43,722 nt of DNA from an uncultured Gammaproteobacteria bacterium (GTDB lineage: Bacteria; Patescibacteriota; Patescibacteriia; UBA9934; GWF2-40-263): positions 1 to 43,722 of the forward strand of contig CAZPPQ010000002.1 of assembly GCA_964588505.1 (NCBI GenBank), in the 5' to 3' direction. Below the pieces are notes generated by a model. The model made no database searches and was not told where the DNA came from. It saw only the letters and a list, made by a program, of their open reading frames with translations. How positions within the stretch are numbered: the first letter of the stretch is position 1; each line of letters begins with the position of its first letter. Below are positions 3,301 to 43,617 of this stretch, in pieces. Made by a program: the position numbers and the translations under genes.

Positions 3301-4243
3301 CATCATAGAGATACAACGAACTGATTGCGCTTGTCGAACCAAGACCGGACATCTTGACAGTAACTTCAGAAACCGACGTTGCGGAAGCAGACGACAAGCT
3401 GAACTTTAACAGCTTGACGCTGGTAGCCTTGTCGGCAATCGTTACGGCAGCCGGGCTGTCCGAAGCCAAGGAGACCGTGAGGGCTCCGGTGGTCGGAGTT
3501 ACTGCCGTGGCTGTCTGGGCCGTGTTGACAAGAGAAGCCTCGACGGCTGACACATCAGAACCTGCTGTCAAGCCGGAGACGCTGACCCCTGTCCCGTCGA
3601 GCAAAAAGCGGCTCTGGTAGCGGTTGGCTGTAAAGCCAGCGCTTGAAACCAAACGCTTCGTGCTGCCGGAAACGAGATAATTACTGCCGCCGCTTGAGAC
3701 CACAGCGCCATCATAGGCGCTCGCGGCGCTCGTAAGGGAGGCACCGACCGTGTAATCAACAAAGAACACATCCGGGACATCTTCCACGAACTTGTTCCAG
3801 TCACTACCGGCCAAGCCCTGCGCAACGGCTTCTGTTTCGATCCATCGTAGGGATCCACTGGAAGAAACAGCGTACACTTTTGGATCACTCTGGATCTTTA
3901 CCCAGAACGCGCCTGGGCGATAAACGACATTGCCACCAAGCGGGATAGCCGCAAGGTCGCTGTCAGAGAGAGTCTGGACACCCGAGAAGTCCGAATACCA
4001 TGTGAGGTACGTCTTCTCGTTCGGGAAAGCATAACGCTTGCTGTCGGCACCGTAGTAATACACGGTGTTCAGCGTCGTTCCTTTGACAAGGTCGCCCGGC
4101 GAAGCCGCGCGTGCCGTCAAAGGAGCCACGAACGCGGAAAAACCCACAGACCACAAAATCGTGGCTGCGGCGACCGCGATCGACAGCGTCCGCTTTCCCA
4201 TGCGAAGTGAATCGTTCATAAGGAAATTTTGGAACCTTTTCAA
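386..4243 (-). CDS. large secreted/cell-surface protein (1285 aa) with an N-terminal hydrophobic anchor/signal
   Basis: It is one uninterrupted 3.86-kb ORF. The N-terminus reads RTLSIAVAAATILWSVGFSAFVAPLTARA (signal-like). The body is S/T/A/G/D-rich and beta-repeat-like, with no catalytic motif seen. The ORF-track start is TTG; ATGs at 4219 and 4201 are alternatives. Confidence 0.8.
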   Translation of the reverse strand: MKRFQNFLMNDSLRMGKRTLSIAVAAATILWSVGFSAFVAPLTARAASPGDLVKGTTLNTVYYYGADSKRYAFPNEKTYLTWYSDFSGVQTLSDSDLAAIPLGGNVVYRPGAFWVKIQSDPKVYAVSSSGSLRWIETEAVAQGLAGSDWNKFVEDVPDVFFVDYTVGASLTSAASAYDGAVVSSGGSNYLVSGSTKRLVSSAGFTANRYQSRFLLDGTGVSVSGLTAGSDVSAVEASLVNTAQTATAVTPTTGALTVSLASDSPAAVTIADKATSVKLLKFSLSSASATSVSEVTVKMSGLGSTSAISSLYLYDGDTRLTVGRSLNSTSRTTSFGGLSVAVAAGAVKTLTLVADMADYSTSGETFAFEISAASSVKSAASVGGSFPVKGATMTTSATEVGSVTVTKGGTISNPNLGTKQHQAAEFKITAGSSEDVSIQRLKLAVGATATDHKNYTLWQNTTKVADGVVGSDYVIFTFSTPYALAQGNNRLFQVKVDVGGKSGDDIRFAFDENSDVYAVGAKYGFGVTVTKTAYDGITSSACNDATDECSWSDIQGGKVTFAFNGPSTTKISPNTTGVTLMKFTITSQTTADIRDIDFSIFASGTGLLGSDTAGTANYQNFRVINLATGSTVMGPEEFDDTIADGDGSGVANKEAVSFSDDFSMSAGQVLDLAILVDVKDTDANSSTYDIVDADTLTAMIEMDQVTARDVNNNDLTAGTDIVPSADITGNAMEVDASALTVALISPPSSKTVVQGSSDVDFLGMSFAAGSASYAKISAITLEGKGDADGTVAEVDMSMAERVSSCSIYDGITGVLIDGPESFASGSSGAKDVIFSGFSWTIPAGQTYKMLVRCNLANLTPETTISASDDIYTIEVDSTDDVTATDAEGNTISESGSDTINSAQGVAITVTSAGSLTTDLAADSPTGTIVLANSTGVTVSKFKFGATNEAIKITKVLLANGSSLDSSVTSVALEYKNQAGETKTSTSFLSSSAVTFENLDLYVPANDVAYLTVKVNMGEATTANTVSGDTISLDLDADGAAEFEAVGLSSGSTLTGASSGVDDVDAATHEVRKTKPTFSLASGSPSGASVPGLNEVFRFNVSADSRGTVTLDKMTFKLTASDNASSSWEECDTDAADALHIGDATEWEIYNANDSTIKLDADGTTPWTFFIDTGAACSTTTGDMSFMVVDFGASGGSIAAEEIAAGETKTYVLRFDSTGASSANDDTIRIEIPDQNEINSLSVGSGIGLDDDAAIQWDDSNLTNSDALNIDADYLKNLPVTGGTIIY

Positions 4244-10799: not shown

Positions 10800-12245
10800 C
10801 TACAGTGTGCCGGCTCCGACCACTCCGGTCTGAGTCACCTGCACGCGGAGCAAATAGTTGTCCCATGTTTGACCTGTGGGACGCGGCTGTCTGGCGCAGA
10901 ACGTACGCGCCGTGGCAGTACCGGAACGACACAGGTCGTCGTTTTCCCACCACCGAACGACTGCCGAAATGTCCGGAATGGTCTGGCTCGCGCCGTTCAC
11001 CGAGCTCACGAGCGTGAACTCGTAGAACCCGGGCGGCCACTTCACGAGGTCTGTGAAGTCGAGCGTGAACGCGCCGCTCGCGGGCGTGACAGAGTTCCTC
11101 GCGCGGAACGTCCAGTCAATTGTTCCATTGTCCGTGCCGACAATGAACGCCAGAGCAGACATGAACGGTTCGGAGATCATGCCGGTCGCGGAAAGAACGA
11201 TCGAACGACCCTGGATGTATACGTACGAGCTCCATGCGTCCGGAGGCGTTCCTGCATCCGCAGGCGAACCAGCATCGGTAATCGAGCCTGCACCTGCATC
11301 GGCGAGAACTCCGGCATCTACGATTGTACCCGCGTCGGAAACCGTACCTGCATCCACGAGATCCCCTGCGTCCGCGAGCGAAGAGCCCGCATCCACCGAG
11401 AACCCCGCATCCTCCAAAACGCCAGCGTCCACCGGACCAGCGTCTGTCAGAGTCCCTGCGTCCACGACCGGAGGAGATCCTGCATCGCCGACTGGCGCTC
11501 CGGCATCTGCGGACGAACCGGCATCTTCCGAAACACCGGCATCGCTCTGCGAAGAACCTGCGTCGGCAACGACACATCCGGTATGAATGGACGTGTTCGT
11601 GTCGTCGCAATCGCCGCTGACTTTCGAATAGCCGATGACGACAGAGGCGCATGCCTCGACGAACTGGTCGTCGCGGCCATATCCGTCCGCATCCGCATCG
11701 CGATACCATCGCGTGCGGTTTGCGACCGGACAAGGATCACCTGCATCTGGCGAACTCGCGCCGGCATCCTCCGGACCAGCATCCACGACAGAAATTGGTC
11801 CGGCATCGCTCGCGCTTCCGGCATCCGCAGGCGTGAATCCCACATCCGCCAGACCCGCGTCCGCACAAACTCCGCACACGCCGGCATCGCTCGAATCGAG
11901 CGGACCGGCATCCGGCGCCTGGGACTGCTCGCACGCGAGATCCTCGATGCGGTTGCAGTCTTCACGACGACCGTTTCCGCAGATTTCTGTCGCACCTGGG
12001 TATACCGATGCGAGTCCGTCATCGCAGTCGTCGCAAACCAGTGTGTAGCCAGCCGGAACGCCGCAGATCGTGGCGACCGTATTCGGGTCGCCGCGGCCGT
12101 CCCGATCGTGGTCATAGCACCACGATCGACAGGCCTCGGGCGGCTGACCATCGTCCGGCGCGTCGAACACGGCAGGACCTCCAATGTTGTCGCCGCAAGA
12201 AACGAAGAAAAGTGTGAAGGCCGACATTGCGAACTTGCGCGTCAT
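10800..12245 (-). CDS. GC-rich secreted lipoprotein with two MopE-like Cys/Asp motifs and about 26 DAG repeats
   Basis: The start is at the ATG at 12245, preceded by GGGAGGAG. The signal plus lipobox-like sequence is MTRKFAMSAFTLFFVSC. Motifs: CYDHDRDGRGD...CDDCDD...PGATEICGNG and WYRDADADGYGRD...GDCDD. A long DAGxxxxDAG array follows. Confidence 0.75.
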   Translation of the reverse strand: MTRKFAMSAFTLFFVSCGDNIGGPAVFDAPDDGQPPEACRSWCYDHDRDGRGDPNTVATICGVPAGYTLVCDDCDDGLASVYPGATEICGNGRREDCNRIEDLACEQSQAPDAGPLDSSDAGVCGVCADAGLADVGFTPADAGSASDAGPISVVDAGPEDAGASSPDAGDPCPVANRTRWYRDADADGYGRDDQFVEACASVVIGYSKVSGDCDDTNTSIHTGCVVADAGSSQSDAGVSEDAGSSADAGAPVGDAGSPPVVDAGTLTDAGPVDAGVLEDAGFSVDAGSSLADAGDLVDAGTVSDAGTIVDAGVLADAGAGSITDAGSPADAGTPPDAWSSYVYIQGRSIVLSATGMISEPFMSALAFIVGTDNGTIDWTFRARNSVTPASGAFTLDFTDLVKWPPGFYEFTLVSSVNGASQTIPDISAVVRWWENDDLCRSGTATARTFCARQPRPTGQTWDNYLLRVQVTQTGVVGAGTL

Positions 12246-25759: not shown

Positions 25760-27292
25760 ATGACTCTCGAACCCATCATAGGCCTGGAGATTCACATCCA
25801 GCTCAAAACAAAAAGCAAAATGTTCTGTGCCTGCCAGGCTCATGAGGTCGCAACACCGAACACAAATATCTGCCCTGTTTGCATGGGTCATCCCGGCACG
25901 CTTCCGGTCGTGAACGCCGAGGCTGTGCGTTTTGGAATTCGCATGGGGCTTGCGCTTGAATGCAAAATCGCTGATCGGTCAAAATTCGACCGCAAGAATT
26001 ATTTTTATCCGGACCTGCCGAAAGCGTATCAGATTTCCCAATACGATATGCCGATCGCGGAAAAAGGATCGATGAAAATTGAAGTTCCGAATAATCCACG
26101 CTCCCCAATTACGATCGGCATCACACGAGCTCATCTGGAAGAAGACGCGGCAAAAAATATCCATGACAAGGATGGGAAGACTTACGTGGATTTCAACCGC
26201 GGTGGTACGCCACTCATTGAAATTGTCACGGAACCGGATTTCCGCAGTCCGGAAGAGGCCAAGACATTCTTGCAAGAACTGCGTCTCATCGCGCGTTATC
26301 TCGGCATTTCTGATGCGGACATGGAAAAAGGACATTTGAGATGCGACGCCAACATTTCACTTCGTCCGATTGACGAGGACAACAATGTCATCAGCCCAAA
26401 ACTCCATCCAAAAACGGAAATCAAAAATATCAACTCATTTCGACACGTGGAACGTGCGCTCTCGTACGAAATACAGCGACAAACGAAACTCTGGAACGCC
26501 GGAACCCCTCCGGCTGTTTCGACGACGCGCGGGTGGAATGATGTCAAACAAGTGACCGAGGAACAACGCACAAAAGAGGCAGCCGAGGATTATCGCTACT
26601 TTCCGGAGCCGGATTTACCGGCTTTGGATTTGCGCGAGCTGACAGAACAAAGCAAAAACGAACTTCCGGAGCTTCCTGCGCAAAAACGTCTCCGTTTTGT
26701 AAAAGAATATGCGCTGAAGTCTGGAGACGCCCGACAGATCTGCGATGATCTTGCACTTGCAAATTTTACTGAACATGTTTTTTCCGAGCTTCATGCGTGG
26801 CTCGATTCCCTCCCAGAGCTTGATCGCGCGCAAGAAGAAATTTGGACAAAAGAATGCGGGCGCGTGGGCAAGCTTGTGGCCGGATGGCTCCTATCAAAGC
26901 TCGGCGGCATCTTGGCCGAACACAAAAGTGACATCCGTATCATGCATATCAGTCCGGAAAACTTCGCGGAATTTATCACCTTACTCGCCACGAACCGGCT
27001 CTCGACCACGAACGGAATGAAAGTACTCGAAGAAATGTTTTTGACCGGAGCGGACCCATCGCATATTATGGAAGAAAAACAGCTTGGCAAGATGGATGAC
27101 ACATCCACGCTCGCGGACGCGATTGATCAAGTGATTGCACAGAATCCCATTGAAGCCGAACGCTATCGCGCCGGCGACAAAAAGCTCATCGCCTTTTTCA
27201 TCGGCCAAGTGATGAAAACGACCGAGGGCGCGGCTGATGCGAAGGAGACAAAAAATTTGCTCGCAGTGAAGCTCGAAAATATTGGGCGTTAG
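25760..27292 (+). CDS. gatB: Asp-tRNA(Asn)/Glu-tRNA(Gln) amidotransferase subunit B
   Basis: Segments: EPIIGLEIHIQLKTKSKMFC, NTNICPVCMGHPGTLPV, DRKNYFYPDLPKAYQISQ, and the C-terminal GatB/YqeY region LIAFFIGQVMKTTEGAADAK. Confidence 0.95.
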   Translation: MTLEPIIGLEIHIQLKTKSKMFCACQAHEVATPNTNICPVCMGHPGTLPVVNAEAVRFGIRMGLALECKIADRSKFDRKNYFYPDLPKAYQISQYDMPIAEKGSMKIEVPNNPRSPITIGITRAHLEEDAAKNIHDKDGKTYVDFNRGGTPLIEIVTEPDFRSPEEAKTFLQELRLIARYLGISDADMEKGHLRCDANISLRPIDEDNNVISPKLHPKTEIKNINSFRHVERALSYEIQRQTKLWNAGTPPAVSTTRGWNDVKQVTEEQRTKEAAEDYRYFPEPDLPALDLRELTEQSKNELPELPAQKRLRFVKEYALKSGDARQICDDLALANFTEHVFSELHAWLDSLPELDRAQEEIWTKECGRVGKLVAGWLLSKLGGILAEHKSDIRIMHISPENFAEFITLLATNRLSTTNGMKVLEEMFLTGADPSHIMEEKQLGKMDDTSTLADAIDQVIAQNPIEAERYRAGDKKLIAFFIGQVMKTTEGAADAKETKNLLAVKLENIGR

Positions 27293-28368
27293 GCTTTAGA
27301 TGACGGGTCTATGGCGATTTTGTTTTTCAAAAACTCTTCAACGAACTTCCATACTTGCTCTGACTTTTCAATCCACTGAATCCGCTTATCGCGCTTGAAC
27401 CATGTCATTTGTCGCTTGGCGTAGGCGCGTGTGTCGCGCTTCACATCCTCGATCGCGGAAGCGAGCGAGATTTTCCCTTGCAAAAAATTCGCGATCTGAC
27501 GGTACCCGATACCGGTCATCGCTGTAGAAGACCCCACCTCACCTCCCCTTGGCAGGGGAGGAATCGCGACAGTTGGGATGCGCTTCGAAAACGAGCGAAC
27601 TTCATCTACAAGCCCGCGCGCGATCATTTCATCCACACGATGATCAATCCGCCTGTTCAGAATTTCTTTTGAAACACTGATCCCGATTTTTAACACATCA
27701 TATTTCGGCTTCCCTTTCACTTGCTGGACCGAGAATGGCTCGCTGGTCGCGCGACAAACTTCAAGCGCGCGCACGAGACGACGCTTATTGTTGCGATCAA
27801 TAACCTCCGCTCCAAACGGATCAAGCTGTTTGTATTCAGCAAACAAATCGTCAAGCGGACGAGCCTCGAGTTCGGTACGAATCTCCGGATTCGGCGGAAC
27901 CTTCGGAATAGAAAGATTGTCCACGACCGCATCCACCCACAAGCCAGTGCCGCCGACAAGAATCGGCACATGTCCGCGCGCGACAATCTCCTTGATGCGC
28001 GCCTCGGCATAAGTTTTGAATTGCGACACATTGTAATCCTCGTTCGGACTTACGAGATCAATTCCCCAATGCGGGATCCCTTCGACCATGTACGGTTTTT
28101 CGCGGAATAAAACAACGCGTCCTCCCCTTACTAAGGGGAGGTTGAGGTGGGGTTCGCCTGCGCCGGCAACCCCCTCTTCCTCCCCCATGGTAAGGGGGGA
28201 ATCGCGCAAAGGCTTAGCCGTGCCGATATCCATCCCTCGAAAAACCAAACGCGAATCTGCGGAAATAATCTCCCCATTGACTCGTTTCGCAATTTCAATT
28301 CCGAGCGCTGTCTTTCCGGACGCTGTCGGCCCAACAATCACGATTAATTTAGGTAATGCGCTCTCCAT
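27289..28368 (-). CDS. miaA: tRNA dimethylallyltransferase with two in-frame repeat-derived insertions
   Basis: Segments: IVIVGPTASGKTALGIEIAK, ISADSRLVFRGMDIGTAKP, GIPHWGIDL, ILVGGTGLW, RLVRALEV, and GIGYRQI. The start is taken at the ATG at 28368 (MESALPK), which overlaps the miaB end by 20 nt. The ORF track extends to 28428. Confidence 0.9.
   Translation of the reverse strand: MESALPKLIVIVGPTASGKTALGIEIAKRVNGEIISADSRLVFRGMDIGTAKPLRDSPLTMGEEEGVAGAGEPHLNLPLVRGGRVVLFREKPYMVEGIPHWGIDLVSPNEDYNVSQFKTYAEARIKEIVARGHVPILVGGTGLWVDAVVDNLSIPKVPPNPEIRTELEARPLDDLFAEYKQLDPFGAEVIDRNNKRRLVRALEVCRATSEPFSVQQVKGKPKYDVLKIGISVSKEILNRRIDHRVDEMIARGLVDEVRSFSKRIPTVAIPPLPRGGEVGSSTAMTGIGYRQIANFLQGKISLASAIEDVKRDTRAYAKRQMTWFKRDKRIQWIEKSEQVWKFVEEFLKNKIAIDPSSKA
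27531..27568 (+). repeat. 38-nt palindromic element, copy A, inside the miaA CDS
   Basis: The sequence is accccacctcacctccccttggcaggggaggaatcgcg, with stem cctcccc/ggggagg. It is translated as IPPLPRGGEVGS. Confidence 0.85.
28116..28153 (-). repeat. 38-nt palindromic element, copy B (inverted orientation), inside the miaA CDS
   Basis: Its reverse complement is accccacctcaacctccccttagtaaggggaggacgcg, nearly identical to copy A over the first 22 nt. It is translated as EPHLNLPLVRGGR. Confidence 0.85.
28169..28206 (+). repeat. 38-nt palindromic element, copy C, inside the miaA CDS
   Basis: The sequence is accccctcttcctcccccatggtaaggggggaatcgcg, with the same architecture and gaatcgcg tail as copy A. 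It is translated as RDSPLTMGEEEGV. Confidence 0.8.
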
Positions 28369-29698
28369 ACAAAATCCACATTTCTGGTTTAATGATTTTA
28401 ACCGGAACGATCTGCCCGACCAGTTCATTCCGGCCAGGAAATGTTACGAGCTTCATCTCGCGCGAATTTCCAAAACACATGGACGGCAAATTCGGCCCGT
28501 GTGGCGGCTCGCAGCGCTCCACGAGCACACTCGCTTCTTTTCCAAGATACGCCTGATTCTTTTTGCGCACCACGCGCTCCATAACTTCCTGCAAACGATC
28601 CCAACGACGGCGTTTTTCCTCGCGCGGCACGTCATCCTTAAACGCGCGGCTCGCGGCCGTGCCGGACCGCGGCGAATAAATCGCGTTATACGAAATATCG
28701 AACCCGATCTCCTCGTACAACGAAATCGTCCGCTCAAACTGCTCTTCTGTTTCCCCGGAAAATCCGACGATCATATCTGTCCCGATCGCCATCTCCGGCC
28801 GCTTGGCGCGCACGCGATGGATGATGTCCGTGTATTCCTCGCGCGTGTATCGGCGGTTCATCCGCCGCAAGACTTCATCGTCTCCGGATTGCACGGCCAA
28901 ATGCAAAAAGTTCATCTGGGCCGGAAGCGCGAGCGCGTCTATCACCTCGTCAGTCATATGCGTCGGGTACGCGGCCGTAAAATGCAAACGCTTTAATCCA
29001 GAAATCTGATTCATCTCCCAAAGCAAGGCCGCAAAATGATCTTTGTATGGATTCACCACGGAGCATGTTTCCGAATCCGGAGCTCGATAGCTGTTCACGG
29101 ATTGCCCGAGCAAGGTGATCTCCACGGCTCCTTTGGCGACAAGCCCGCACGCTTCATTCAAAATTTCCTTTGCCGGACGGTTCTTCTCAAACCCGCGGGC
29201 GAACGGAACCACGCAATACGAACAAAACTTGTTGCATCCAGTCTGCACAACCACAAACGCCTGCCGCACATTCGTTCGTAAAGGATCAATCTGGAGATAT
29301 GATGCCGGAGCCGCGATCTCCTGCGGAACCAAATCCGGACGAAGCTCGCGGATCCAACGCGGGAGCTGTGGCAAATCCGCAATCGGAAAGCACAAATCAA
29401 CGATCGGAAGTTTTTTGCGAATCTTCCCATCATAATCGCGTCCGGCCATACATCCTGTTATCCCAATCACAATGTCAGGCTTTGCGGCCTTAAGCTTCTC
29501 AAATGCGCGGACGTGTCCATACACACGATCCTCCGCGCTCTGCCGAACCGAGCATGTATTCAAAAGAATAAAATCAGCCTCTGCCTCGTTTTCGGTCTCT
29601 GCAAATCCCAATGATTGCAAAAGCGCGGCGATGCGCTCGGAATCGCTTTTGTTCATCTGACAGCCATAGGTGACAAGACAATACATCGGAACTCTCAT
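28349..29698 (-). CDS. miaB: tRNA-i6A37 methylthiotransferase (radical SAM, MiaB family)
   Basis: The N-terminal cluster is VTYGCQMNKSDSE. The radical-SAM motif is GCNKFCSYCVVPFARG. A C-terminal TRAM-like region is present, and the gene lies directly upstream of miaA. Confidence 0.85.
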   Translation of the reverse strand: MRVPMYCLVTYGCQMNKSDSERIAALLQSLGFAETENEAEADFILLNTCSVRQSAEDRVYGHVRAFEKLKAAKPDIVIGITGCMAGRDYDGKIRKKLPIVDLCFPIADLPQLPRWIRELRPDLVPQEIAAPASYLQIDPLRTNVRQAFVVVQTGCNKFCSYCVVPFARGFEKNRPAKEILNEACGLVAKGAVEITLLGQSVNSYRAPDSETCSVVNPYKDHFAALLWEMNQISGLKRLHFTAAYPTHMTDEVIDALALPAQMNFLHLAVQSGDDEVLRRMNRRYTREEYTDIIHRVRAKRPEMAIGTDMIVGFSGETEEQFERTISLYEEIGFDISYNAIYSPRSGTAASRAFKDDVPREEKRRRWDRLQEVMERVVRKKNQAYLGKEASVLVERCEPPHGPNLPSMCFGNSREMKLVTFPGRNELVGQIVPVKIIKPEMWILYGERIT

Positions 29699-30456: not shown

Positions 30457-32340
30457 ATGCCTTCAGCCAACCCAGAACGCCGCCAGTCTCCAGAAGGAGA
30501 AAAATGGAAGCCGGAAGCGGCCAAAACTCCGGAACACGCCGAGCGCGAAGAACTGCACATTCCAGAAGTCGGAGAAACATTAAAAATTTATGATGCCTCG
30601 GGCAATGAACAGAGCGAGGTTGTTGTTGGGGCAGATAAAAAAGAAGGCATTGTCATTGTCGGCCACGAGACAAGCGGCGCGCCGCGAGTGCGCGAGATTA
30701 TGCCGGGCGAATCCAATTCGCGCGAACGGGCCGAAGAAATGAATGAAAAATTGAATAAGGCTTTTGAAGCGGCCGTTGATGCGACAATCAAAGCGTTTGG
30801 ATTGAAAGGAAAAGAGGCGAAAAATACCCGCGCCAAACTTGGAGAACACCGCGCGCTCATTGTCGCAAAAGCCGCGTCTATGGACGCGCCGGAAGCCGCG
30901 CTGATGGGTTCTGTTGAAGCGCTCACGCACGAAAAGAAGGAAACAAAAGAGGCTGAAAAAAAAGCGAGAATGGAACGTGGGGTGCAAGAAACTCGTCTCG
31001 AAGTTTTGTCGAAACGCGAGGAGGTCGTGCGACTGCGAGCGGAAATCCAGCAAGCGGAAAAAACGGAAAATGAAGCGGTATATAAAAAAGCGAGAAGGGC
31101 TTTTGACAAAGCGTCGAAAAGTCTCCATCTGCAGGAACGCGCGCTTGTCCAACTTGAAAGCTATCTGCGACCCGAGGAACCGAAAGAAGAAATCGTTGAT
31201 GAAGTTGAGGGCACCGTCGAACTCAAACCAAAACCTGTCTATTCCGAAGGGGTCACGGATGTGGAAAATGCCATCGATTTTTCCGAAACTCGCATGCGGG
31301 ATCTGGATAAGGTTCTCCAAAAAGACCCGAAAAATGTCACGGCGCTCAACGAGTGGAATTTATTGAATCATGAGCGCACAGCCGACCGTGTTGTTCTGGA
31401 ATCCCTAAAACGGAAAGAGGACAAGGAACGAAAAGAAAAAAAAATCGAAGCGCTCCGAGCCGAAACAGAAGCTATGGATAAGAAAGAGTTGGCAGAAGCG
31501 AAAAAAGAGATGAAGACGGCCGAGAAAGCGAAAGACGACAAAAAGGCCGAACAATTGCTTGCCAAAATCCATGAACTGGAAAATCCTGCGGAGGACACGA
31601 AAGAAATCAAAGCGCTTAAAGCGGAAATCGCCGAGATTGATGCCAAAGAAGCGAGGCTCGCCGAAGCGGATTGGGAAGGATTCAACGTCATTTCCAAAAG
31701 CGGCGAAGCGCCGGCTCCGGAAGCGCCGTATCTTGATGAAGAGGTGTTGAGCCAACCGCCGCCAGTTCCGGAGGAGATAAAAGCGGATTCGCTAGCGGAA
31801 GATGAAGCACGACAAAAAGAAAAAACGCTCCGTGGAATTTTGGAAAATATTCAAGGGAACAGACGCGGCCCACAACTAAAACCTGCAGAACCCATCAAGG
31901 AAGAAGAGCTGGAGATAGACACAAGCGAATTTGAGAAAAAACCGGAAGCCAGAAAAAAAGAGGGGCCTATTCCGGAAGAGGAGCCGGCGCCAGGTTCAAG
32001 AGCTGAAAAAAACGATGTAAGAAAAGTGGTCGCGAATGTCGCGGAACAACGATTAAAAAAGGAAGAAGAAGCGCACCAAAAAATGTTGCTGGAAGCGTCG
32101 AAAGGGCTCGATATCCCGGCTTCCAAAATTGAAATAGCTATGGCCGCTTTCAAAAACGCAAGACTGTGGGAGAGATTCCGCACAGCAGAAGACAAAATTC
32201 CGGAAAAAAAGTGGCCCGCAAAACTAAATCCATTCAAAAAAGAAAAATCCGAGCGGCAAAAAATATGGGGAGAGATTCAAGCCGCGGCAAAAGAAGCAGG
32301 TATTGACCTCACGAAAGCCGGCAAAAAACGCGCGCGATAA
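30457..32340 (+). CDS. K/E-rich coiled-coil-like hypothetical protein (627 aa)
   Basis: It is a long ORF with a highly charged low-complexity (K, E, A) composition. The antisense ORFs within it are composition artefacts. No TM segment or catalytic motif was seen. Confidence 0.6.
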   Translation: MPSANPERRQSPEGEKWKPEAAKTPEHAEREELHIPEVGETLKIYDASGNEQSEVVVGADKKEGIVIVGHETSGAPRVREIMPGESNSRERAEEMNEKLNKAFEAAVDATIKAFGLKGKEAKNTRAKLGEHRALIVAKAASMDAPEAALMGSVEALTHEKKETKEAEKKARMERGVQETRLEVLSKREEVVRLRAEIQQAEKTENEAVYKKARRAFDKASKSLHLQERALVQLESYLRPEEPKEEIVDEVEGTVELKPKPVYSEGVTDVENAIDFSETRMRDLDKVLQKDPKNVTALNEWNLLNHERTADRVVLESLKRKEDKERKEKKIEALRAETEAMDKKELAEAKKEMKTAEKAKDDKKAEQLLAKIHELENPAEDTKEIKALKAEIAEIDAKEARLAEADWEGFNVISKSGEAPAPEAPYLDEEVLSQPPPVPEEIKADSLAEDEARQKEKTLRGILENIQGNRRGPQLKPAEPIKEEELEIDTSEFEKKPEARKKEGPIPEEEPAPGSRAEKNDVRKVVANVAEQRLKKEEEAHQKMLLEASKGLDIPASKIEIAMAAFKNARLWERFRTAEDKIPEKKWPAKLNPFKKEKSERQKIWGEIQAAAKEAGIDLTKAGKKRAR

Positions 32341-34202: not shown

Positions 34203-34323
34203 GTCATTGCGAGCGAAGCCCGCCCGACCGAACGAATGGATACTCGGCCGTTCGGGCAGGCGAAGCAATCTCTAGGTGAGATTGCTTCGTCGCCCCGCCT
34301 ACGGCGGGGCTCCTCGCAATGAC
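34203..34323 (-). repeat. 121-nt cloverleaf-like palindromic element (GTCATTGCGAG...CTCGCAATGAC family) in the thrS 5' region
   Basis: An 11-bp closing stem gtcattgcgag/ctcgcaatgac encloses three hairpins: ccgaacg/cgttcgg, cgaagcaatctc/gagattgcttcg (12 bp), and ccccgcc/ggcgggg. Confidence 0.8.
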
Positions 34324-34360
34324 ATATCAAAAATAAAAATCGAGAAGCTGAAGCTCTCCC

Positions 34361-34419: not shown

Positions 34420-34545
34420 GAGACCTCTAAAAAATCGATGGATTTTCGGTGAATGGGGTAGCCAGCCTCCGAGACGTACTAGAACGTACGTTGAGGAGGT
34501 AGCGGGGCCCCATGAGCCGAAAAGACGCGATTTTGCAGAGGTCTC
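34420..34545. other. 126-nt rod-like extended hairpin
   Basis: Nested pairings: gagacctct/agaggtctc, aaaatcg/cgatttt, ttttcgg/ccgaaaa, tgggg/cccca, cctcc/ggagg, and acgtac/gtacgt around the apical loop tagaac. The right arm abuts the stop codon of the upstream gene. Confidence 0.7.
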
Positions 34546-35678
34546 TACTCAATTTCCACAAAAATATGATCCGTGAGGCGAGGGACGCGCTTCACCCAAA
34601 ACGGAAAAAACTCGACGATGACATCCGAAGCTACGCCATCATCCAAGACAAGCGCCTTTTTGACATCCTCGGCCGTCATGCCGGCAAACCGTGACGGATT
34701 CAATTTTGCGCTGGTGGTCGAGGCAACGGTGCGGCCATCCAAATACACGCGTAGACTCGCGGTTTCGTTCATCACATCCACTTTGTCCGCGACTAATTGT
34801 AATCCTTCCATATTCATTTCGACGAACCTCCTCCCACTTCCCAATTCATTATACAAACGCGTGGCCGCGACTTCCTCGGCCGTATTGCGATCAAAAAATA
34901 CGCCGGTTACACGAGCCTTCATCCGGACGGTAAATTCGTCCGCAGAAGCGCCGACTTTTACACTCGACTCCTGATCGGACACCTGTACCTGAAACGTTTC
35001 GCCGGTGTACATGGTTCCGACTGATTCACGAAGCATGACCTTTGCATCTGTTTCCAAGTCCGCTTTCAATTTCGCAAAAGCTGAATCAATATCGGATTGA
35101 CCGATCGCTTTGGTCGCCACCACTCCGCCAGTGAACGACTCGACGCTATCCGCATACACAAATTCCTGCCGCGCCACTGCAAGGCCAGGAATCGTAAACT
35201 TTATCGGGCCGATATTTCCGGAATCGCCAGGCTTGTCCGCGTGCGCGTCAACAGTCTTTTCTCCGCGAGCCGGAATAAGAATCGTCTCATCAATGCGGAA
35301 TAACACGCCTTCCGGAGAAAGCAGGCGTGTGCGTACGACAAGCTCCTGTTCGCTACCAGACGTATTGTGAATCGTCACTTTTCCATGCGCGATCGCGTCC
35401 ACCATTGTTGTTCCATCTCCGCCCGGCTTTGCGGTTTCAGTCTTTTCCAGAACACGAGAAGCGACACGGCCGCGCACCTCGGTCGGACGCGTCGGAATTT
35501 TTACGACATCAAGCAAAAAATCTGTCTTGATAGTTTCGGCCGTTGTTTTCACGCGGATCGTGGCGCGCATGATTGAAAGATAAACAACGGCAAACAGGAC
35601 AAACAAAACAATAACAAGAAAACTCACGGCAATCCGGCGATAGAGACGCAAAGACGGCCCCCTTGCTTTTGGTGTCAT
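34545..35678 (-). CDS. hypothetical membrane-anchored protein
   Basis: One N-terminal TM (IAVSFLVIVLFVLFAVVYLSI) is followed by a beta-rich domain of about 330 aa. The start is taken at the ATG at 35678 (MTPKARG); the ORF track extends to a TTG at 35747. Confidence 0.65.
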   Translation of the reverse strand: MTPKARGPSLRLYRRIAVSFLVIVLFVLFAVVYLSIMRATIRVKTTAETIKTDFLLDVVKIPTRPTEVRGRVASRVLEKTETAKPGGDGTTMVDAIAHGKVTIHNTSGSEQELVVRTRLLSPEGVLFRIDETILIPARGEKTVDAHADKPGDSGNIGPIKFTIPGLAVARQEFVYADSVESFTGGVVATKAIGQSDIDSAFAKLKADLETDAKVMLRESVGTMYTGETFQVQVSDQESSVKVGASADEFTVRMKARVTGVFFDRNTAEEVAATRLYNELGSGRRFVEMNMEGLQLVADKVDVMNETASLRVYLDGRTVASTTSAKLNPSRFAGMTAEDVKKALVLDDGVASDVIVEFFPFWVKRVPRLTDHIFVEIE

Positions 35679-35746
35679 GTCTATTCGTCGTGTTCTGGCT
35701 GATTTCGGAGTCACAGGAATGTGAAATGATGTGCGTTGATTAAACA

Positions 35747-35771
35747 ACGCCCTAAACCCCTAACGCCCTAC
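35747..35771. repeat. TTAGG-type boundary repeats (CCTAA orientation)
   Basis: The sequence acgccctaa acccctaa cgccctac lies immediately after the dnaE stop codon. Confidence 0.8.
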
Positions 35772-40405: not shown

Positions 40406-42820
40406 TTATGTCCGTAGTATACCACCAAACTCTTGCTCAAGCACGCGGCGGACGACGGCAAGCTCGCAATCAACCTCTTCGGACGAGAGCGTCCGGTCAT
40501 CCGCGCGAAATGTCATGTGCATGGCGACCGACTTCTTGCCTGCCGGAATATTTTGACCGCGGTACAGATCGAACAATTCCACCTCGCGCAACAACGGCGA
40601 CGCTTCCTTTATTTTTTTTACGATGTCGGCGTAGACCGCGCGCTCGCCGAGAACCACGGCTAAATCGCGCTTAACTTCAGGATAGGACGGAACGGCCGTA
40701 TACCTCTGTTTGTACGAAGCAAACTCTGCGAGTCTTTCAAAAGCGATGTCCGCGCAAACCACGTCGCTTTCAACACCGAACGCGCGGGAAGTTATAGGAC
40801 CTATCTGACCAATAAGACCTATAGGAACTGAATTAATGACAATTTGCGCTGTGCGCGTCTGATGCCATTGCGCAGAAACACTCGCAGGACGATCCCATTT
40901 CCATTCGCGGATGCCCATTTCACGGAACAGCCGTTCGAGCATCCCTTTCACGGCTTTAAACCCTTTGTCTCCGGAAACTCCGTACTTCACGACAGCAAGC
41001 CGGAGCTCTTGATCTGGAATATCGTCCGCGTGCGCAAGATGCACTGTGCCGATTTCAAACAGCGCCGCGTTCCGAATTCGTCGTTCGTTCACCTCCACGG
41101 CTGAAAGAATTGATGGAAGAAGCGAAGGACGAATGAGCGCCTGATCGCTCGCAAGCGGATTTTGGATGCGAACCGCGAATTCCGGATCCATGCCGTATTT
41201 CGACAATTCCGCGTCGGACGTAAAGTTCATGCCGTACAATTCCAAAAGTCCGGCGCCGCGCAAAAGCTCTTTTGCACGCCGTTCCCACACAATGACCGGA
41301 TCAGCCGCGCCAGGCGCTACCTCGCCGACCGGCAGAACTGACGGAATGTTCGAGTAGCCATACAGCCGCGCAATCTCCTCTACAAAATCCCGCGAGCCTT
41401 CGATATCTCGGTCGCGCCAATACGGGACTGCCACTTGATAGGTCTTATGGGATCTATCGGACATATTGGACCTATCTTTTTCCAGTAAAAACCCAAGTCG
41501 CTTCAACATGCCAACCATTTCTTTTGCCGGCAATTCCACGCCCATCAACGCCTGCGCCTTCGCTGGATCAAACGTAACATGCGGCGCCGTGTATGGCTTC
41601 GCCTCGAACGAAGAAACAGTGGAAGCGACGCGGCCGCCCGCGACTTTCAAAATCAATTCAACGGCGCGAGCCAATGCCGCGCGTGTGGCTTGCGGCGACA
41701 ATCCTTTTTCAAACAGCTGGGACGAATCCGAGGCGAGATTCAACGTGCGTGCGGTCTTGCGGACCGAAACTGGATGGAACGTCGCGGATTCCAAAATGAT
41801 GCGCGTTGTTTTTTCCGTGGTGCCGGTTGCTTCACCTCCCATCACGCCAGCGATTGCGACCGGGCGATCCGCGTCGGCAATCACAAGCATCGCGTCAGTA
41901 AGCGCGTATTCCTTTCCATTAAGCGCGAGAATTTTTTCTCCGGTTCGTGCGCGCCGCGCAACGATTTTCCCGCCATGCAGAGTATCAGCGTCAAACGCGT
42001 GCATCGGCTGGCCGAGCTCGTGCAAAACATAATTCGTCACATCCACGATATTGTTGATCGGCCGATGGCCAGCGAGCAATAATTTCTTTTGAAACCACCA
42101 CGGCGACGGCCCGACCTTTACTCCATCAATCGCCACTGCCTCATATTTCAAACACAGATCCGGCGCGTCGACGGAAACCGAAACCGCGCCATCAGCGGCC
42201 GGAATCTCTTTTGTCTTCCACGCAAACCGGTCGCCGGTCGCCGCGCTTCCCTCGCGCGCCTGACCGACAATACTCATACAATCCGGCCGGTTTGATGTAA
42301 CTTCGACATCAAACACAACCTCATCCGCCAAATCCAACGCTTCGGCAAGCGGTGTGCCTGGCTTTGCGCGCGTAACTTTCGATAAATCCCAAATCTCATG
42401 ATTACCCTGGATCAATTTATCAAACCCCAATTCACTAGCCGCGCAAATCATACCAGCGCTTTTGACGCCGCGGATTTCCGCCGGCTGCAATTCCACCCAA
42501 TCGCCCTCGCCGTGCCATTTCACTTTTGCGCCCGGCAATGCGACCGCGACTTTCTGCTTTTTTTTCAAATTCGTTCCGCCGCACACGACCTCGACGATTT
42601 CCGAACCGAGATCCACTTCGACCAGCCGAAGTTTGTCCGCGTTCGGATGCGGCTTCAAACTTTTCACCCGTCCGAGCACCATACGCGCCATGGCCGGAGC
42701 GAACGCGCGCATGTGTTCCACACTGTTCCCTGCAGCCGTCATTTTTTCCGCAAAAACATCATACGGCAGATTCGTCTTTAAAAATTCTTTAATCCAGTCG
42801 TAGGAGGTAAGAATGTTCAT
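40406..42820 (-). CDS. pheT: phenylalanine--tRNA ligase beta subunit
   Basis: Segments: MNILTSYDWIKEFL, the tRNA-binding domain GRVKSLKPHPNADKLRLVEVDLG, B3/4 and B5 domains, and a C-terminal FDX-ACB-like region DLYRGQNIPAGKKSVAMHMTF. Confidence 0.95.
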   Translation of the reverse strand: MNILTSYDWIKEFLKTNLPYDVFAEKMTAAGNSVEHMRAFAPAMARMVLGRVKSLKPHPNADKLRLVEVDLGSEIVEVVCGGTNLKKKQKVAVALPGAKVKWHGEGDWVELQPAEIRGVKSAGMICAASELGFDKLIQGNHEIWDLSKVTRAKPGTPLAEALDLADEVVFDVEVTSNRPDCMSIVGQAREGSAATGDRFAWKTKEIPAADGAVSVSVDAPDLCLKYEAVAIDGVKVGPSPWWFQKKLLLAGHRPINNIVDVTNYVLHELGQPMHAFDADTLHGGKIVARRARTGEKILALNGKEYALTDAMLVIADADRPVAIAGVMGGEATGTTEKTTRIILESATFHPVSVRKTARTLNLASDSSQLFEKGLSPQATRAALARAVELILKVAGGRVASTVSSFEAKPYTAPHVTFDPAKAQALMGVELPAKEMVGMLKRLGFLLEKDRSNMSDRSHKTYQVAVPYWRDRDIEGSRDFVEEIARLYGYSNIPSVLPVGEVAPGAADPVIVWERRAKELLRGAGLLELYGMNFTSDAELSKYGMDPEFAVRIQNPLASDQALIRPSLLPSILSAVEVNERRIRNAALFEIGTVHLAHADDIPDQELRLAVVKYGVSGDKGFKAVKGMLERLFREMGIREWKWDRPASVSAQWHQTRTAQIVINSVPIGLIGQIGPITSRAFGVESDVVCADIAFERLAEFASYKQRYTAVPSYPEVKRDLAVVLGERAVYADIVKKIKEASPLLREVELFDLYRGQNIPAGKKSVAMHMTFRADDRTLSSEEVDCELAVVRRVLEQEFGGILRT

Positions 42821-43617
42821 AAAATAACTGACACTTTTTCATAAAACATAGGCAAGCAATCTTGCCTCATGCGAAATTTTGTGCCGTGATTGTGTCCGGT
42901 GCGAGCGTCAAAATCCACAAGGATTTTTCCTTCTTCCAATGCTTTCAAAAATCCCTCAAAATTAAATTTCTGCAACATCATCACCTTTGTGTAATGATAA
43001 AATTCTTTTTTTCGGACAATTTTCACTTCGGCCTGAACATAAAAGGCATTGAGTAGTTTTGTTCCGGCCTTGTGTTCCAAATCGTCAAAGCCCCAGTATG
43101 GTTGCGGATCAAGTTCGCCAAGACCAACACGCTTTTTTACCGATTCAACCCATGCTTTATGGCGCAAGTCAGCACTTTTTGCGTCAAACGAAATTAAAAT
43201 CTTTCGCTCCTTTCGGTCAATCACAACTTTGAATCCGCGATCGCTTCGCGATTGCCCGTGTATGGTTTGATGGAAGCTCATCTCTCCTTTTGGATATTTC
43301 TTGCCGTCCTCTTGATGCGCCCAGCCGTATTTTGGCAGAAGCACTTGAGGCACAAAGCGAATTGCGCGCGGCGAAGGTTCAATATGGAAGAGTGTCGTTA
43401 GTGAAGTTGAATTGAGGCGTTGGGCTTTCAATTCCCACTCGGCGGCGTTCGGAATCGGCAGATTGTTTTCTTTGATACCGAGTAAATCCTCAAGAGTATT
43501 GCCGATACCGCCAGCATTTCCTCGCCGCGCGTTAGGAATAAAGCCCATAGCCGATATTTCTTTCAGCTTGGCTATCAGTTCCGGTTTTGTATAAGTTTTA
43601 GGTTTATTCTTTGCCAT
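42817..43617 (-). CDS. MvaI/BcnI-like (MutH-fold) type II restriction endonuclease
   Basis: The sequence GGIGNTLEDLLGIKENNLPIPNAAEWELKAQR...LTTLFH fits the pattern recalled for the BcnI/MvaI family (G..LE...G..ENN....D....ELK). Its stop overlaps the pheT start (ATGA), and it lies 4 nt downstream of a methyltransferase gene. Confidence 0.55.
   Translation of the reverse strand: MAKNKPKTYTKPELIAKLKEISAMGFIPNARRGNAGGIGNTLEDLLGIKENNLPIPNAAEWELKAQRLNSTSLTTLFHIEPSPRAIRFVPQVLLPKYGWAHQEDGKKYPKGEMSFHQTIHGQSRSDRGFKVVIDRKERKILISFDAKSADLRHKAWVESVKKRVGLGELDPQPYWGFDDLEHKAGTKLLNAFYVQAEVKIVRKKEFYHYTKVMMLQKFNFEGFLKALEEGKILVDFDARTGHNHGTKFRMRQDCLPMFYEKVSVIL

Follow-up and report, generated by a model that had tools for sequence, protein, structure and literature searches.

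The miaA gene of contig CAZPPQ010000002.1, the analysed stretch of which (43,722 nt) is referred to as the window, contained three copies (A, B, and C) of a short palindromic element that left its reading frame unbroken. This raised the question of where the copies came from and by what means such units spread. The best explanation was that they are derivatives or empty forms, without an open reading frame (ORF), of a mini-element associated with DUF559 endonuclease genes, and this reading is considered probable. That the DUF559 nuclease itself mobilises the units is a separate and more tentative proposal. The direct observations were the anatomy of the copies, their in-frame position, their absence from most MiaA orthologues, an insertion site common to four lineages, a cross-phylum repeat family, the linkage of that family to DUF559 genes, and the match of one pair of copies to a DUF559-bearing unit beside miaA in a relative.

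Anatomy of the elements in miaA

The repeated unit was composed of a 7–9-bp C-rich/G-rich hairpin (CCTCCCC/GGGGAGG), which was followed by a G-rich (GA)GGTGGGG tail. The positions and orientations of the three copies, first given by a sequence-only reading of the stretch, were confirmed when the sequence was re-read (Table 1). All three copies were located in frame inside the uninterrupted minus-strand miaA ORF, where copies A, B, and C encoded the peptides AIPPLPRGGEVG, EPHLNLPLVRGG, and RDSPLTMGEEEG, respectively. The same reading had found no further copies within the 43.7-kb window, and both a pattern search and a profile search agreed with it. The pattern CCCC-N4-9-GGGGAGG-N1-3-GAGGKGG gave exactly three matches in the window and none in 100 dinucleotide-preserving shuffles (0 expected by chance). 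An nhmmer profile built from 14 half-elements matched A, B, and C at E ≤ 7e-7, and the next, unrelated match had E > 0.8.

The copies had been described as three separate elements. They were better explained by two insertion events, a doublet formed by B and C and a solo end, A. On the mRNA strand, B and C folded together into one long hairpin of −61.4 kcal/mol (z = −5.9), a stability reached by 0 of 200 shuffles, and they were therefore regarded as one doublet rather than as two insertions. The 8-bp hairpin of copy A alone was no stabler than shuffles of such a G+C-rich sequence (z = −0.96). Copy B was present in the miaA mRNA as its C-rich complement. Copy C, read from the hairpin to the tail, had the sequence CGCGATT-CCCCCC-TTACCAT-GGGGGAGG-AAGAGGGGGT and was 74% identical to copy A in an ungapped comparison. 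The sense strand of A and C contained strong Shine-Dalgarno-like runs (GGAGGUGAGGUGG), and the G-rich tails conformed to the rules for two-tetrad G-quadruplexes, with three tetrads in the cross-phylum consensus. Each half was free of stop codons in four to five of the six frames because its arms are homopyrimidine and homopurine, and the only stops were those contributed by the loop or by a tail TGA. No Rfam family reached the gathering score in nine loci, and the window gave only sub-threshold, microRNA-like chance matches on the doublet.

Seven other assemblies, each from a different sample, had an identical miaA gene including the elements over the part that their contigs covered. Three of these covered the whole of miaA, and the sole difference was a single base outside the elements. 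An assembly artefact was ruled out by this identity among seven independent assemblies, and the gene was called as 359 residues in independent assemblies. In four of the seven, the contig broke off precisely where A or B ends, as multi-copy repeats cause assemblies to do.

Insertion into MiaA and the wider repeat family

Typical MiaA proteins of Uhrbacteria were composed of approximately 317–319 residues, compared with 359 in the window. A set of 121 MiaA sequences, the window's own and 120 Uhrbacteria orthologues, was examined for internal inserts of at least six residues. Such inserts were found in 26 of the 121 sequences, with 32 events at approximately five sites. A single event was near residue 294, and the other sites were located after residues ~26–28, in the loop that follows the TAKP motif, before GIGYRQ, and after GYRQIxxFL. 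The insertion sites abutted the highly conserved motifs TAKP, GIGYRQ, and GYRQIxxFL. Since most of the 120 orthologues had no insert, and near-identical DNA was present in other genes and in intergenic regions, the units were inserted rather than ancestral. The sequence-only reading had named two findings that would overturn it, an ancestral loop encoded by unrelated DNA and a lack of further copies; no such loop was seen, and copies were abundant elsewhere. Where the DNA was fetched, the inserts were the hairpin unit at other positions of miaA. Two units were found in miaA of locus L002. Locus L004 contained four, of which two were in miaA, another was in a DHFR gene, and the last was intergenic.

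The site of copy A was occupied in the window and in three further Uhrbacteria lineages, L001, L246, and L247. The proteins were ~63–72% identical and the hairpin was kept. The loop start TGCC was common to the four lineages, and the stems varied on both arms (CCTCCCC/GGGGAGG, CCCTCC/GGGGGG, and CTCCCCC/GGGGGAG). Copy A is thus an old insertion that is common to four lineages and not a recent one. The variation on both arms fits selection for the hairpin and overwriting from other copies equally. In L246 (MiaA P0010), an assembly gap (a run of N) was located in the TAKP loop of miaA at ~560–810, and the contig of L247 began exactly in this loop, its start encoding PSDPSPRLRAGG. Therefore, the doublet site is probably occupied in the L246/L247 subclade as well. 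No read skipped an element, and the apparent skips that were listed belonged to orthologues from other organisms. At residue ~28 of P0001, the closest MiaA orthologue, another GC-rich hairpin was observed (L001 10118–10139; CCCGCCG-TGATCCAT-GGGCGGG), and it encoded a 16-residue insert, GSARDPWRDPAVIHGR, directly after the P-loop helix.

As a control, GatB orthologues were taken from genomes of the same kind. Nine insert events were found in 120 sequences, which was 5.6-fold fewer per residue than in MiaA, and the GatB orthologues did carry G-rich inserts, mostly at one site. By this control, small in-frame inserts are general in these genomes and miaA is moderately hot. A recurrent in-frame insert encoding peptides that resemble (P)GKAGSGYAG or SGGAGSGSAG was observed at one GatB site of several Uhrbacteria, in the sequences P0148, P0169, P0187, P0203, P0209, and P0225 (at core position ~396, or ~365 in P0148), and also in the MiaA orthologues P0043 and P0092. 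It probably represents a different family of small elements.

When the window MiaA was compared with the solved MiaA structures (PDB codes 2QGN and 3D3Q), residues 54–94 and ~13 residues before GIGYRQ had no counterpart. These observations bore out the earlier claim of extra length at the two places, with the exception of its size in the TAKP loop, which had been put at 35 residues. A loop of ~30 residues after TAKP is already present in typical Uhrbacteria MiaA, and the net gain from the doublet, relative to the nearest orthologues, is therefore only ~16 residues. An AlphaFold model built with the 121-sequence alignment had a mean predicted local distance difference test (pLDDT) score of 86.9. 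Residues 60–88 scored below 50, and residues ~264–283 scored 53–69 and had no secondary structure. In this model, both insertions fall in variable surface loops that are predicted to be disordered. The inserted peptides are presumably neutral. None of the metatranscriptome runs searched contained any word of the window miaA.

The wider family was scanned with CCTCCCC-N-GGGGAGG-N-(GA)GGTGGGG over GTDB species genomes, JGI metagenomes, and IMG/VR viral contigs. At least 120 family stretches were found in the species genomes, at least 120 in the metagenomes, and at least 118 in the viral contigs (at least 358 loci in all). The hosts among the matches listed were cyanobacteria, alpha-, beta-, gamma-, and deltaproteobacteria, Bacteroidota, Chloroflexi, Nitrospirae, Planctomycetota, Brocadia, and Gastranaerophilales. 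The scan patterns fixed 21–23 bases, for which only a handful of chance matches was estimated. Pairing ran past the bases fixed by the pattern, with 1.17 extra inner pairs compared with 0.36 in shuffled loops. Among 266 family copies, 29% were doublets with tails inward, 14% were doublets with tails outward, 12% were full palindromes, and 44% were solo or unclassified. In the same samples of groundwater, a 35-nt match to copy B (at least 85% likeness) was located in different, AT-rich flanks of a far more abundant organism (depth 79). Two intergenic doublets of L132 matched copy A with 97% identity over 34 nt, and copy B was 94% identical to a copy in L148.

Family copies were found both between genes and inside open frames, and all three frames and both orientations were used. 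A long open frame was rejected as proof of a genic copy, as it was unreliable in high-GC loci (44 of 142 copies "span" one); genic copies were accepted only where the translation was recognisable as a known protein. The intragenic hosts recognised in this way from the translated sequence, and not checked against Pfam, were Prevotella MetH, a Bacteroidales glycyl-radical enzyme, a Nitrospirae GspE-type ATPase, an FtsX-like permease, DapF, RNase R, RluD, and TlyA. The DapF insert, PHLNLPRQGGG, was nearly equal to PHLNLPLVRGG of the window.

BLAST searches with a proteobacterial doublet gave no match in deposited phage genomes and six plasmid records, all unannotated at the match. A match was present in 1 of 5426 E. 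coli genomes, and the family was read as lacking in this species. The viral or proviral contigs with the hairpin-plus-tail unit (IMG/VR, L257–L374) may carry it as phage-borne DNA or in the host flanks of a prophage. Arrays were also observed. In Scytonema sp. NUACC26 (L025 ~2560–2710), a 37-nt unit, CCCTCCCCTTGGAAAGGGGGAAATTGAATCTCCTGTT, was repeated head to tail and ended in a full hairpin-plus-tail unit, and arrays in L067 (Variovorax) and L041 had periods of 154 and ~340 nt. When the literature was searched for the consensus sequence, all that came up were human or primer sequences with no relation to it, and searches on the candidate phyla radiation (CPR), Patescibacteria, or DUF559 together with repeats found nothing on the hairpin-plus-tail family.

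DUF559 genes between hairpin ends, and the genome context

DUF559 is one of the large families of "unknown function". When 1249 ORFs from 240 loci with the element were clustered all against all, one cluster of small ORFs from nine loci emerged beyond the usual large families, and these ORFs abutted the element where the flanks were checked. Pfam DUF559 (PF04480) was matched by five members of the cluster and by the N-terminal portion of the protein P0066, six representatives in all, with E values of 1e-27 to 1e-43. The DUF559 gene was located 3–131 nt from the anchor element in 10 of the 11 loci having one, for which a rough chance estimate was ~1e-9. The arrangement of hairpin and G-tail, DUF559 gene, and C-tail and hairpin was found in L186, L241, L086, L375, and L376, and the tails pointed outward in L060. 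Four DUF559 genes of viral loci were far from the anchor and not selected by adjacency, and three of them had their own flanking hairpin pairs. In addition, C-terminal peptides of the element type (e.g. PSLAGGE, PPLVKGG, and PPLPRGD) were present in 37 of 120 DUF559 proteins selected by homology, whereas shuffled tails gave 9 on average and 16 at most. Many of these proteins were from Patescibacteria, and many were encoded on very short contigs.

The columns E24, D53, E64, D66, H70, and D79 were invariant in the 120 homologues. A search of the PDB with the DUF559 profile gave 3HRL (1.8e-32) and, weakly, the homing endonuclease I-Bth0305I (3R3P, 7.7e-4). Vsr, DUF559, and the intron endonuclease I-Bth0305I have been grouped in one classification (PMC3424549). 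The nuclease of the ORF-bearing DUF559 units of relatives is assigned by these sequence comparisons to the Vsr-like PD-(D/E)XK group, with conserved catalytic residues.

Two units of Uhrbacteria were compared with the miaA doublet. In L375, a DUF559 unit was located between miaB and miaA, just upstream of miaA. Its sequence was CCCCTCC-TTTCCAA-GGAGGGG-TTAGGGGAGGTTGCCGG-TGGT-ATG...DUF559...GTGCTA-CCGGCAACCCCCTCCTCC-CACCCCACCCAA-CCTCCCC-TCGGGCA-GGGGAGG, which continued into miaA. Because the element has no stop codon in that frame, the gene call P0066 (L375 2083–3435) was a fusion of 450 residues, containing DUF559, the element-encoded linker HPTQPPLGQGR, and MiaA. The ends of the unit in L376 were GCGTCCCCTCC...GGGGAGGTTAAT-ATG and CAACCCCCTG...TCCCCC-TTGGGAA-GGGGGA. 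The outer boundary (C)GCGTCC was common to copy B, the left end of the L376 unit, and the second site of L002. The motif GGGGAGGTTG in the left tail of the window doublet was common to the ends of the L375 and L376 units, and CCGGCAACCCCCTC(T/C)TCC of the doublet spacer and right end was common to the right end of the L375 unit. Furthermore, in a contig of sample X9 with GGTTAGGGGAGGTT directly followed by GCCGGCAACCCCC, the two L375 ends were joined without the ORF at TTGCCGGCAA, where a left end of the L375 type meets the right half found in the window doublet. The common end motifs and this ORF-less junction point to the B+C doublet as the ORF-less form of a unit of the L375/L376 type.

The tail motif GGAGG was located 5–12 nt before the DUF559 ATG in L375, L376, and L182. 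This spacing suggests that the G-rich tail probably also acts as ribosome-binding site for the endonuclease gene, which the C-rich arm could mask. In Caulobacter, a link has been described between the motif YGCCGGCR and a Vsr-like DUF559 protein (PMC12907096), and the GCCGGC at the centre of the window doublet matched this motif. The TTGCCGGCAA palindrome with YGCCGGCR may be a putative recognition site of the nuclease in the Uhrbacteria subfamily, and if so, ORF-less doublets would be homing targets.

The window has a G+C content of 51%, and miaA is located between gatB and miaB. The host protein matched Pfam IPPT (PF01715, E 3e-71) and contained the P-loop GPTASGKT. A phmmer search with the window MiaA gave the structures 2QGN, 3D3Q, and 2ZM5, and the top Foldseek matches of the AlphaFold model were E. 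coli MiaA (2ZM5 and 3FOZ), with template modelling (TM) scores of 0.77–0.79. The closest relatives of MiaA and GatB were found in Candidatus Uhrbacteria and other Patescibacteria, which points to a groundwater CPR bacterium of the Uhrbacteria as the source of the genome. In the relative whose GatB was 88% identical, the contig stopped ~40 codons into miaA, short of site A.

Table 1. Positions of the elements and of the genes around them in the window
Feature	Position (nt)	Strand	Description
Copy A, solo half-element	27531–27568	−	On the mRNA strand, CGCGATT, hairpin CCTCCCC-TGCCAA-GGGGAGG, and G-rich tail TGAGGTGGGGT; ~residues 267–280
Doublet B+C	28116–28206		Composite of two inverted half-elements with tails inward; 91 nt; residues 55–85 (RDSPLTMGEEEGVAGAGEPHLNLPLVRGGRV)
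Copy B, left half of doublet	28116–28153	+	CGCGT, hairpin CCTCCCC-TTACTAA-GGGGAGG, and tail TTGAGGTGGGGT
Doublet spacer	28154–28168		15 nt, TCGCCTGCGCCGGCA, with GCCGGC at 28162–28167
Copy C, right half of doublet	28169–28206	−	On the + strand, C-rich tail ACCCCCTCTTCC, hairpin TCCCCC-ATGGTAA-GGGGGGA, and ATCGCG
miaA	27289–28368	−	tRNA dimethylallyltransferase; from the ORF list; 359 residues from MESALPK; ORF open upstream to 28428
gatB	25760–27292	+	Neighbour of miaA
miaB	28349–29698	−	Neighbour of miaA

A second, unrelated palindromic family was observed in the window at 34262–34326, just upstream of thrS (ORF start 34268, minus strand), with the sequence GAAGCAATCTC-TAGG-TGAGATTGCTTC, then GTCGCCCCGCCTACGGCGGGGCTCCTCGCAATGAC. 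Two to three related copies (CATTGCGAGG...CGAAGCAATC) filled the gatB–miaA spacer of the relative with the 88% identical GatB (L248 ~11540–11700). A gene for an MvaI/BcnI-family restriction endonuclease (Pfam E 4e-66) was located beside pheT at 42817–43617 on the minus strand. Three large ORFs of the window had no Pfam match at E ≤ 1e-5, at 386–4243 (−; 1285 residues), 30457–32340 (+; 627 residues), and 34545–35747 (−; 400 residues).

Origin of the units and comparison with known systems

The parent form would be an element of ~0.5 kb in which a DUF559 gene lies between two hairpin ends, and the window copies would be internal-deletion derivatives, similar to transposable elements of the miniature inverted-repeat type (MITEs), or still-empty landing sites. 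The units would spread when the DUF559 nuclease cuts target or empty sites and repair copies the unit, or by a transposition-like reaction. Short, non-autonomous palindromic units would land in the tolerant, variable loops of MiaA and become fixed; insertions of suitable length in such loops would survive and be translated, and the stop-free homopyrimidine and homopurine arms would account for their persistence within the gene.

Several observations weigh against this origin from DUF559-associated units. In the window, no DUF559 gene was found by a Pfam scan of 20 of the 37 long ORFs or by tblastn with DUF559 queries, and no transposase was found among the same 20 ORFs. Only ~4% of the element copies carry a DUF559 ORF, and it may be that the repeat is the older of the two and was invaded by the ORF secondarily, instead of being mobilised by it. 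We know of no lone PD-(D/E)XK nuclease that is established as a transposase. No clear target-site duplication was present at the doublet, where there were at most TTG flanks, and no empty-site variant was found in the Logan contigs of eight runs, in which the organism had a depth of 3–6x. Part of the apparent conservation across phyla is produced by the construction of the 21–23-base scan patterns. A central palindrome resembling a restriction site was rejected as a general feature, as palindromes were no commoner in 108 doublet spacers than in shuffles, and the GCCGGC centre is therefore only a lead. Translation of the inserts as Pro/Gly-rich disordered loops is read from the intact frame only.

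Three other explanations were weighed against these data. The units could be strict repetitive extragenic palindromic (REP) elements, or REP doublets forming hairpins (REPINs), that are copied by a REP-associated tyrosine transposase (RAYT) of the HUH Y1 type encoded elsewhere, the DUF559 genes being mere frequent neighbours. The doublet-plus-singlet architecture and the long B+C hairpin fit the REPIN definition (PMC3116915), and intragenic REPs, both single and dimeric and encoding 20–30 residues, are on record in several species (PMC3733652). However, the REP tag GTAG was absent and CGTC occurred only incidentally within CGCGTCC of copy B. The Pfam-scanned window ORFs included no Y1 transposase, and none of the first five recurrent neighbour clusters of the 240 loci was RAYT-like, as judged by reading without a Pfam scan. 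REP-RAYT systems are lineage-specific and vertically inherited, whereas the hairpin-plus-tail unit was near-unchanged across phyla and on viral contigs, and the DUF559 genes were located precisely between two inverted ends, unlike a random neighbour. This explanation is considered unlikely.

A second possibility is that the host keeps the elements in miaA for regulation in cis, through ribosome pausing, mRNA stability, or a G-quadruplex in the tail. Retention of the copy A hairpin in four diverged lineages despite changes on both arms, the Shine-Dalgarno-like runs of A and C with quadruplex-compatible tails, and the higher density of inserts in MiaA than in GatB (~5.6-fold per residue) are in its favour. 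Nevertheless, the unit is present in many unrelated genes, in both orientations and three frames, and also between genes; B is opposite in orientation to A and C within one mRNA; most MiaA orthologues have no insert; and hairpin conservation in four sequences equally fits overwriting by gene conversion. A regulatory role is thus regarded as improbable. The lowest weight by far was given to G/P-rich loops that arose in place in each lineage, by slippage or by template switching at quasi-palindromes, or to assembly chimeras. The length of the TAKP loop varies in all Uhrbacteria, and the solo hairpin A was no more stable than shuffles, as such an origin would allow; but the DNA identity of copy A to the intergenic doublets of a different organism (L132), the copy of B in other flanks from the same samples, the lack of pattern matches in window shuffles, and the seven assemblies identical over miaA as far as each reaches make it highly improbable.

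An origin as ORF-less derivatives or empty forms of DUF559-associated units thus remains the preferred reading. A broader proposal, which is possible but doubtful at present, is that DUF559 members are the nucleases of bacteria-wide miniature selfish elements. These would be composed of a gene for a Vsr-like endonuclease of ~120 residues between inverted ends and would have ORF-less forms from the CPR to cyanobacteria and proteobacteria, occur on viral contigs, and time and again become fixed as translated loops beside the conserved motifs of essential enzymes; in Uhrbacteria, the ORF would be located inside the TTGCCGGCAA palindrome. No paper connecting DUF559 with paired hairpin ends or with derivatives that lack the ORF was found, although the literature searched was incomplete and is no proof of novelty. 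The sequence-only reading of an in-frame palindromic insertion was essentially right; the cross-phylum family tied to DUF559 extends beyond it and needs experiments.

Palindromic insertions that keep the frame have so far been an oddity limited to Rickettsia and a small number of REP-rich genomes, and how they spread has been unclear. The CPR provides a second, unrelated group with small genomes in which this behaviour is common, at approximately five sites of one essential enzyme and in GatB too. A sequence family that crosses phyla is unusual for REP-like elements, and its coupling to a small nuclease gene supplies a candidate mobilising activity and a testable function for DUF559. The units also break metagenome assemblies and extend or fuse gene calls, as in P0066, which is a hazard for annotation, and the disordered Pro/Gly loops could pass for lineage-specific protein features.

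The likeness to Rickettsia palindromic elements (RPEs) noted in the sequence-only reading was supported as a likeness of behaviour only, in that a palindromic repeat lies in a coding sequence without breaking the frame and the ORF was intact in every independent assembly. Like RPEs, the units are short palindromic in-frame repeats, both genic and intergenic, that would add peptides to the protein surface in a host-dependent lineage with a small genome (PMC3733652). RPEs are a family of Rickettsia and Wolbachia, whereas the present unit is found in Uhrbacteria, has its own sequence, extends to many phyla, and flanks DUF559 genes. To our knowledge, no nuclease partner is known for RPEs. RPE-4 and RPE-6 belong to a group of REPs tagged with CGTC (PMC3733652); this tag was absent from copies A and C and incidental in copy B.

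The units share with REP elements and REPINs the GC-rich imperfect palindromes of 20–40 nt, the inverted doublet that forms a long hairpin (the active form of REPINs), the singlets (decayed remnants in REPINs), and the breaking of assemblies at these places (PMC3116915, PMC3733652). They differ in that the gene between the inverted ends encodes a PD-(D/E)XK nuclease and not an HUH Y1 transposase, and in that the sequence is cross-phylum. In the window the outer ends were CGCGATT or CGCGT, and relatives had (C)GCGTCC at this place, with no fixed tag across phyla, and neither GTAG nor CGTC marked the ends. Membership of the REP-RAYT system was not supported. As in MITEs such as the enterobacterial RU and Coxiella QMITE1/2, the units appear to be non-autonomous, share the terminal inverted repeats of a longer ORF-bearing element, and are in some cases in frame, within genes or at their ends (PMC5896051, PMC2759123). 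The terminal inverted repeats were common to the longer gene-bearing units L375, L376, L186, L241, and L086. Classical MITEs are derived from insertion sequences with a DDE transposase and have target-site duplications, whereas the parent here would encode a Vsr-like nuclease of ~120 residues and the doublet is shorter than 100 nt.

The "fractured genes" and I-Bth0305I likewise involve Vsr-like PD-(D/E)XK nucleases (EDxHD) and the invasion of conserved housekeeping genes. For an ORF of a Vsr-like homing endonuclease, a conserved upstream hairpin that can hide the ribosome-binding site, and that stays after loss of the gene, has been described (PMC2677866). The endonucleases of "fractured genes" are longer and belong to loci of the phage type in which split inteins or group I introns occur, and paired inverted ends with ORF-less families have not been reported for them; unlike those genes, the miaA locus has no intein or intron, and its remnants would be translated. 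The nearest mechanistic precedent for the units in miaA is provided by free-standing homing endonuclease genes of the Vsr-like kind, as in "fractured genes".

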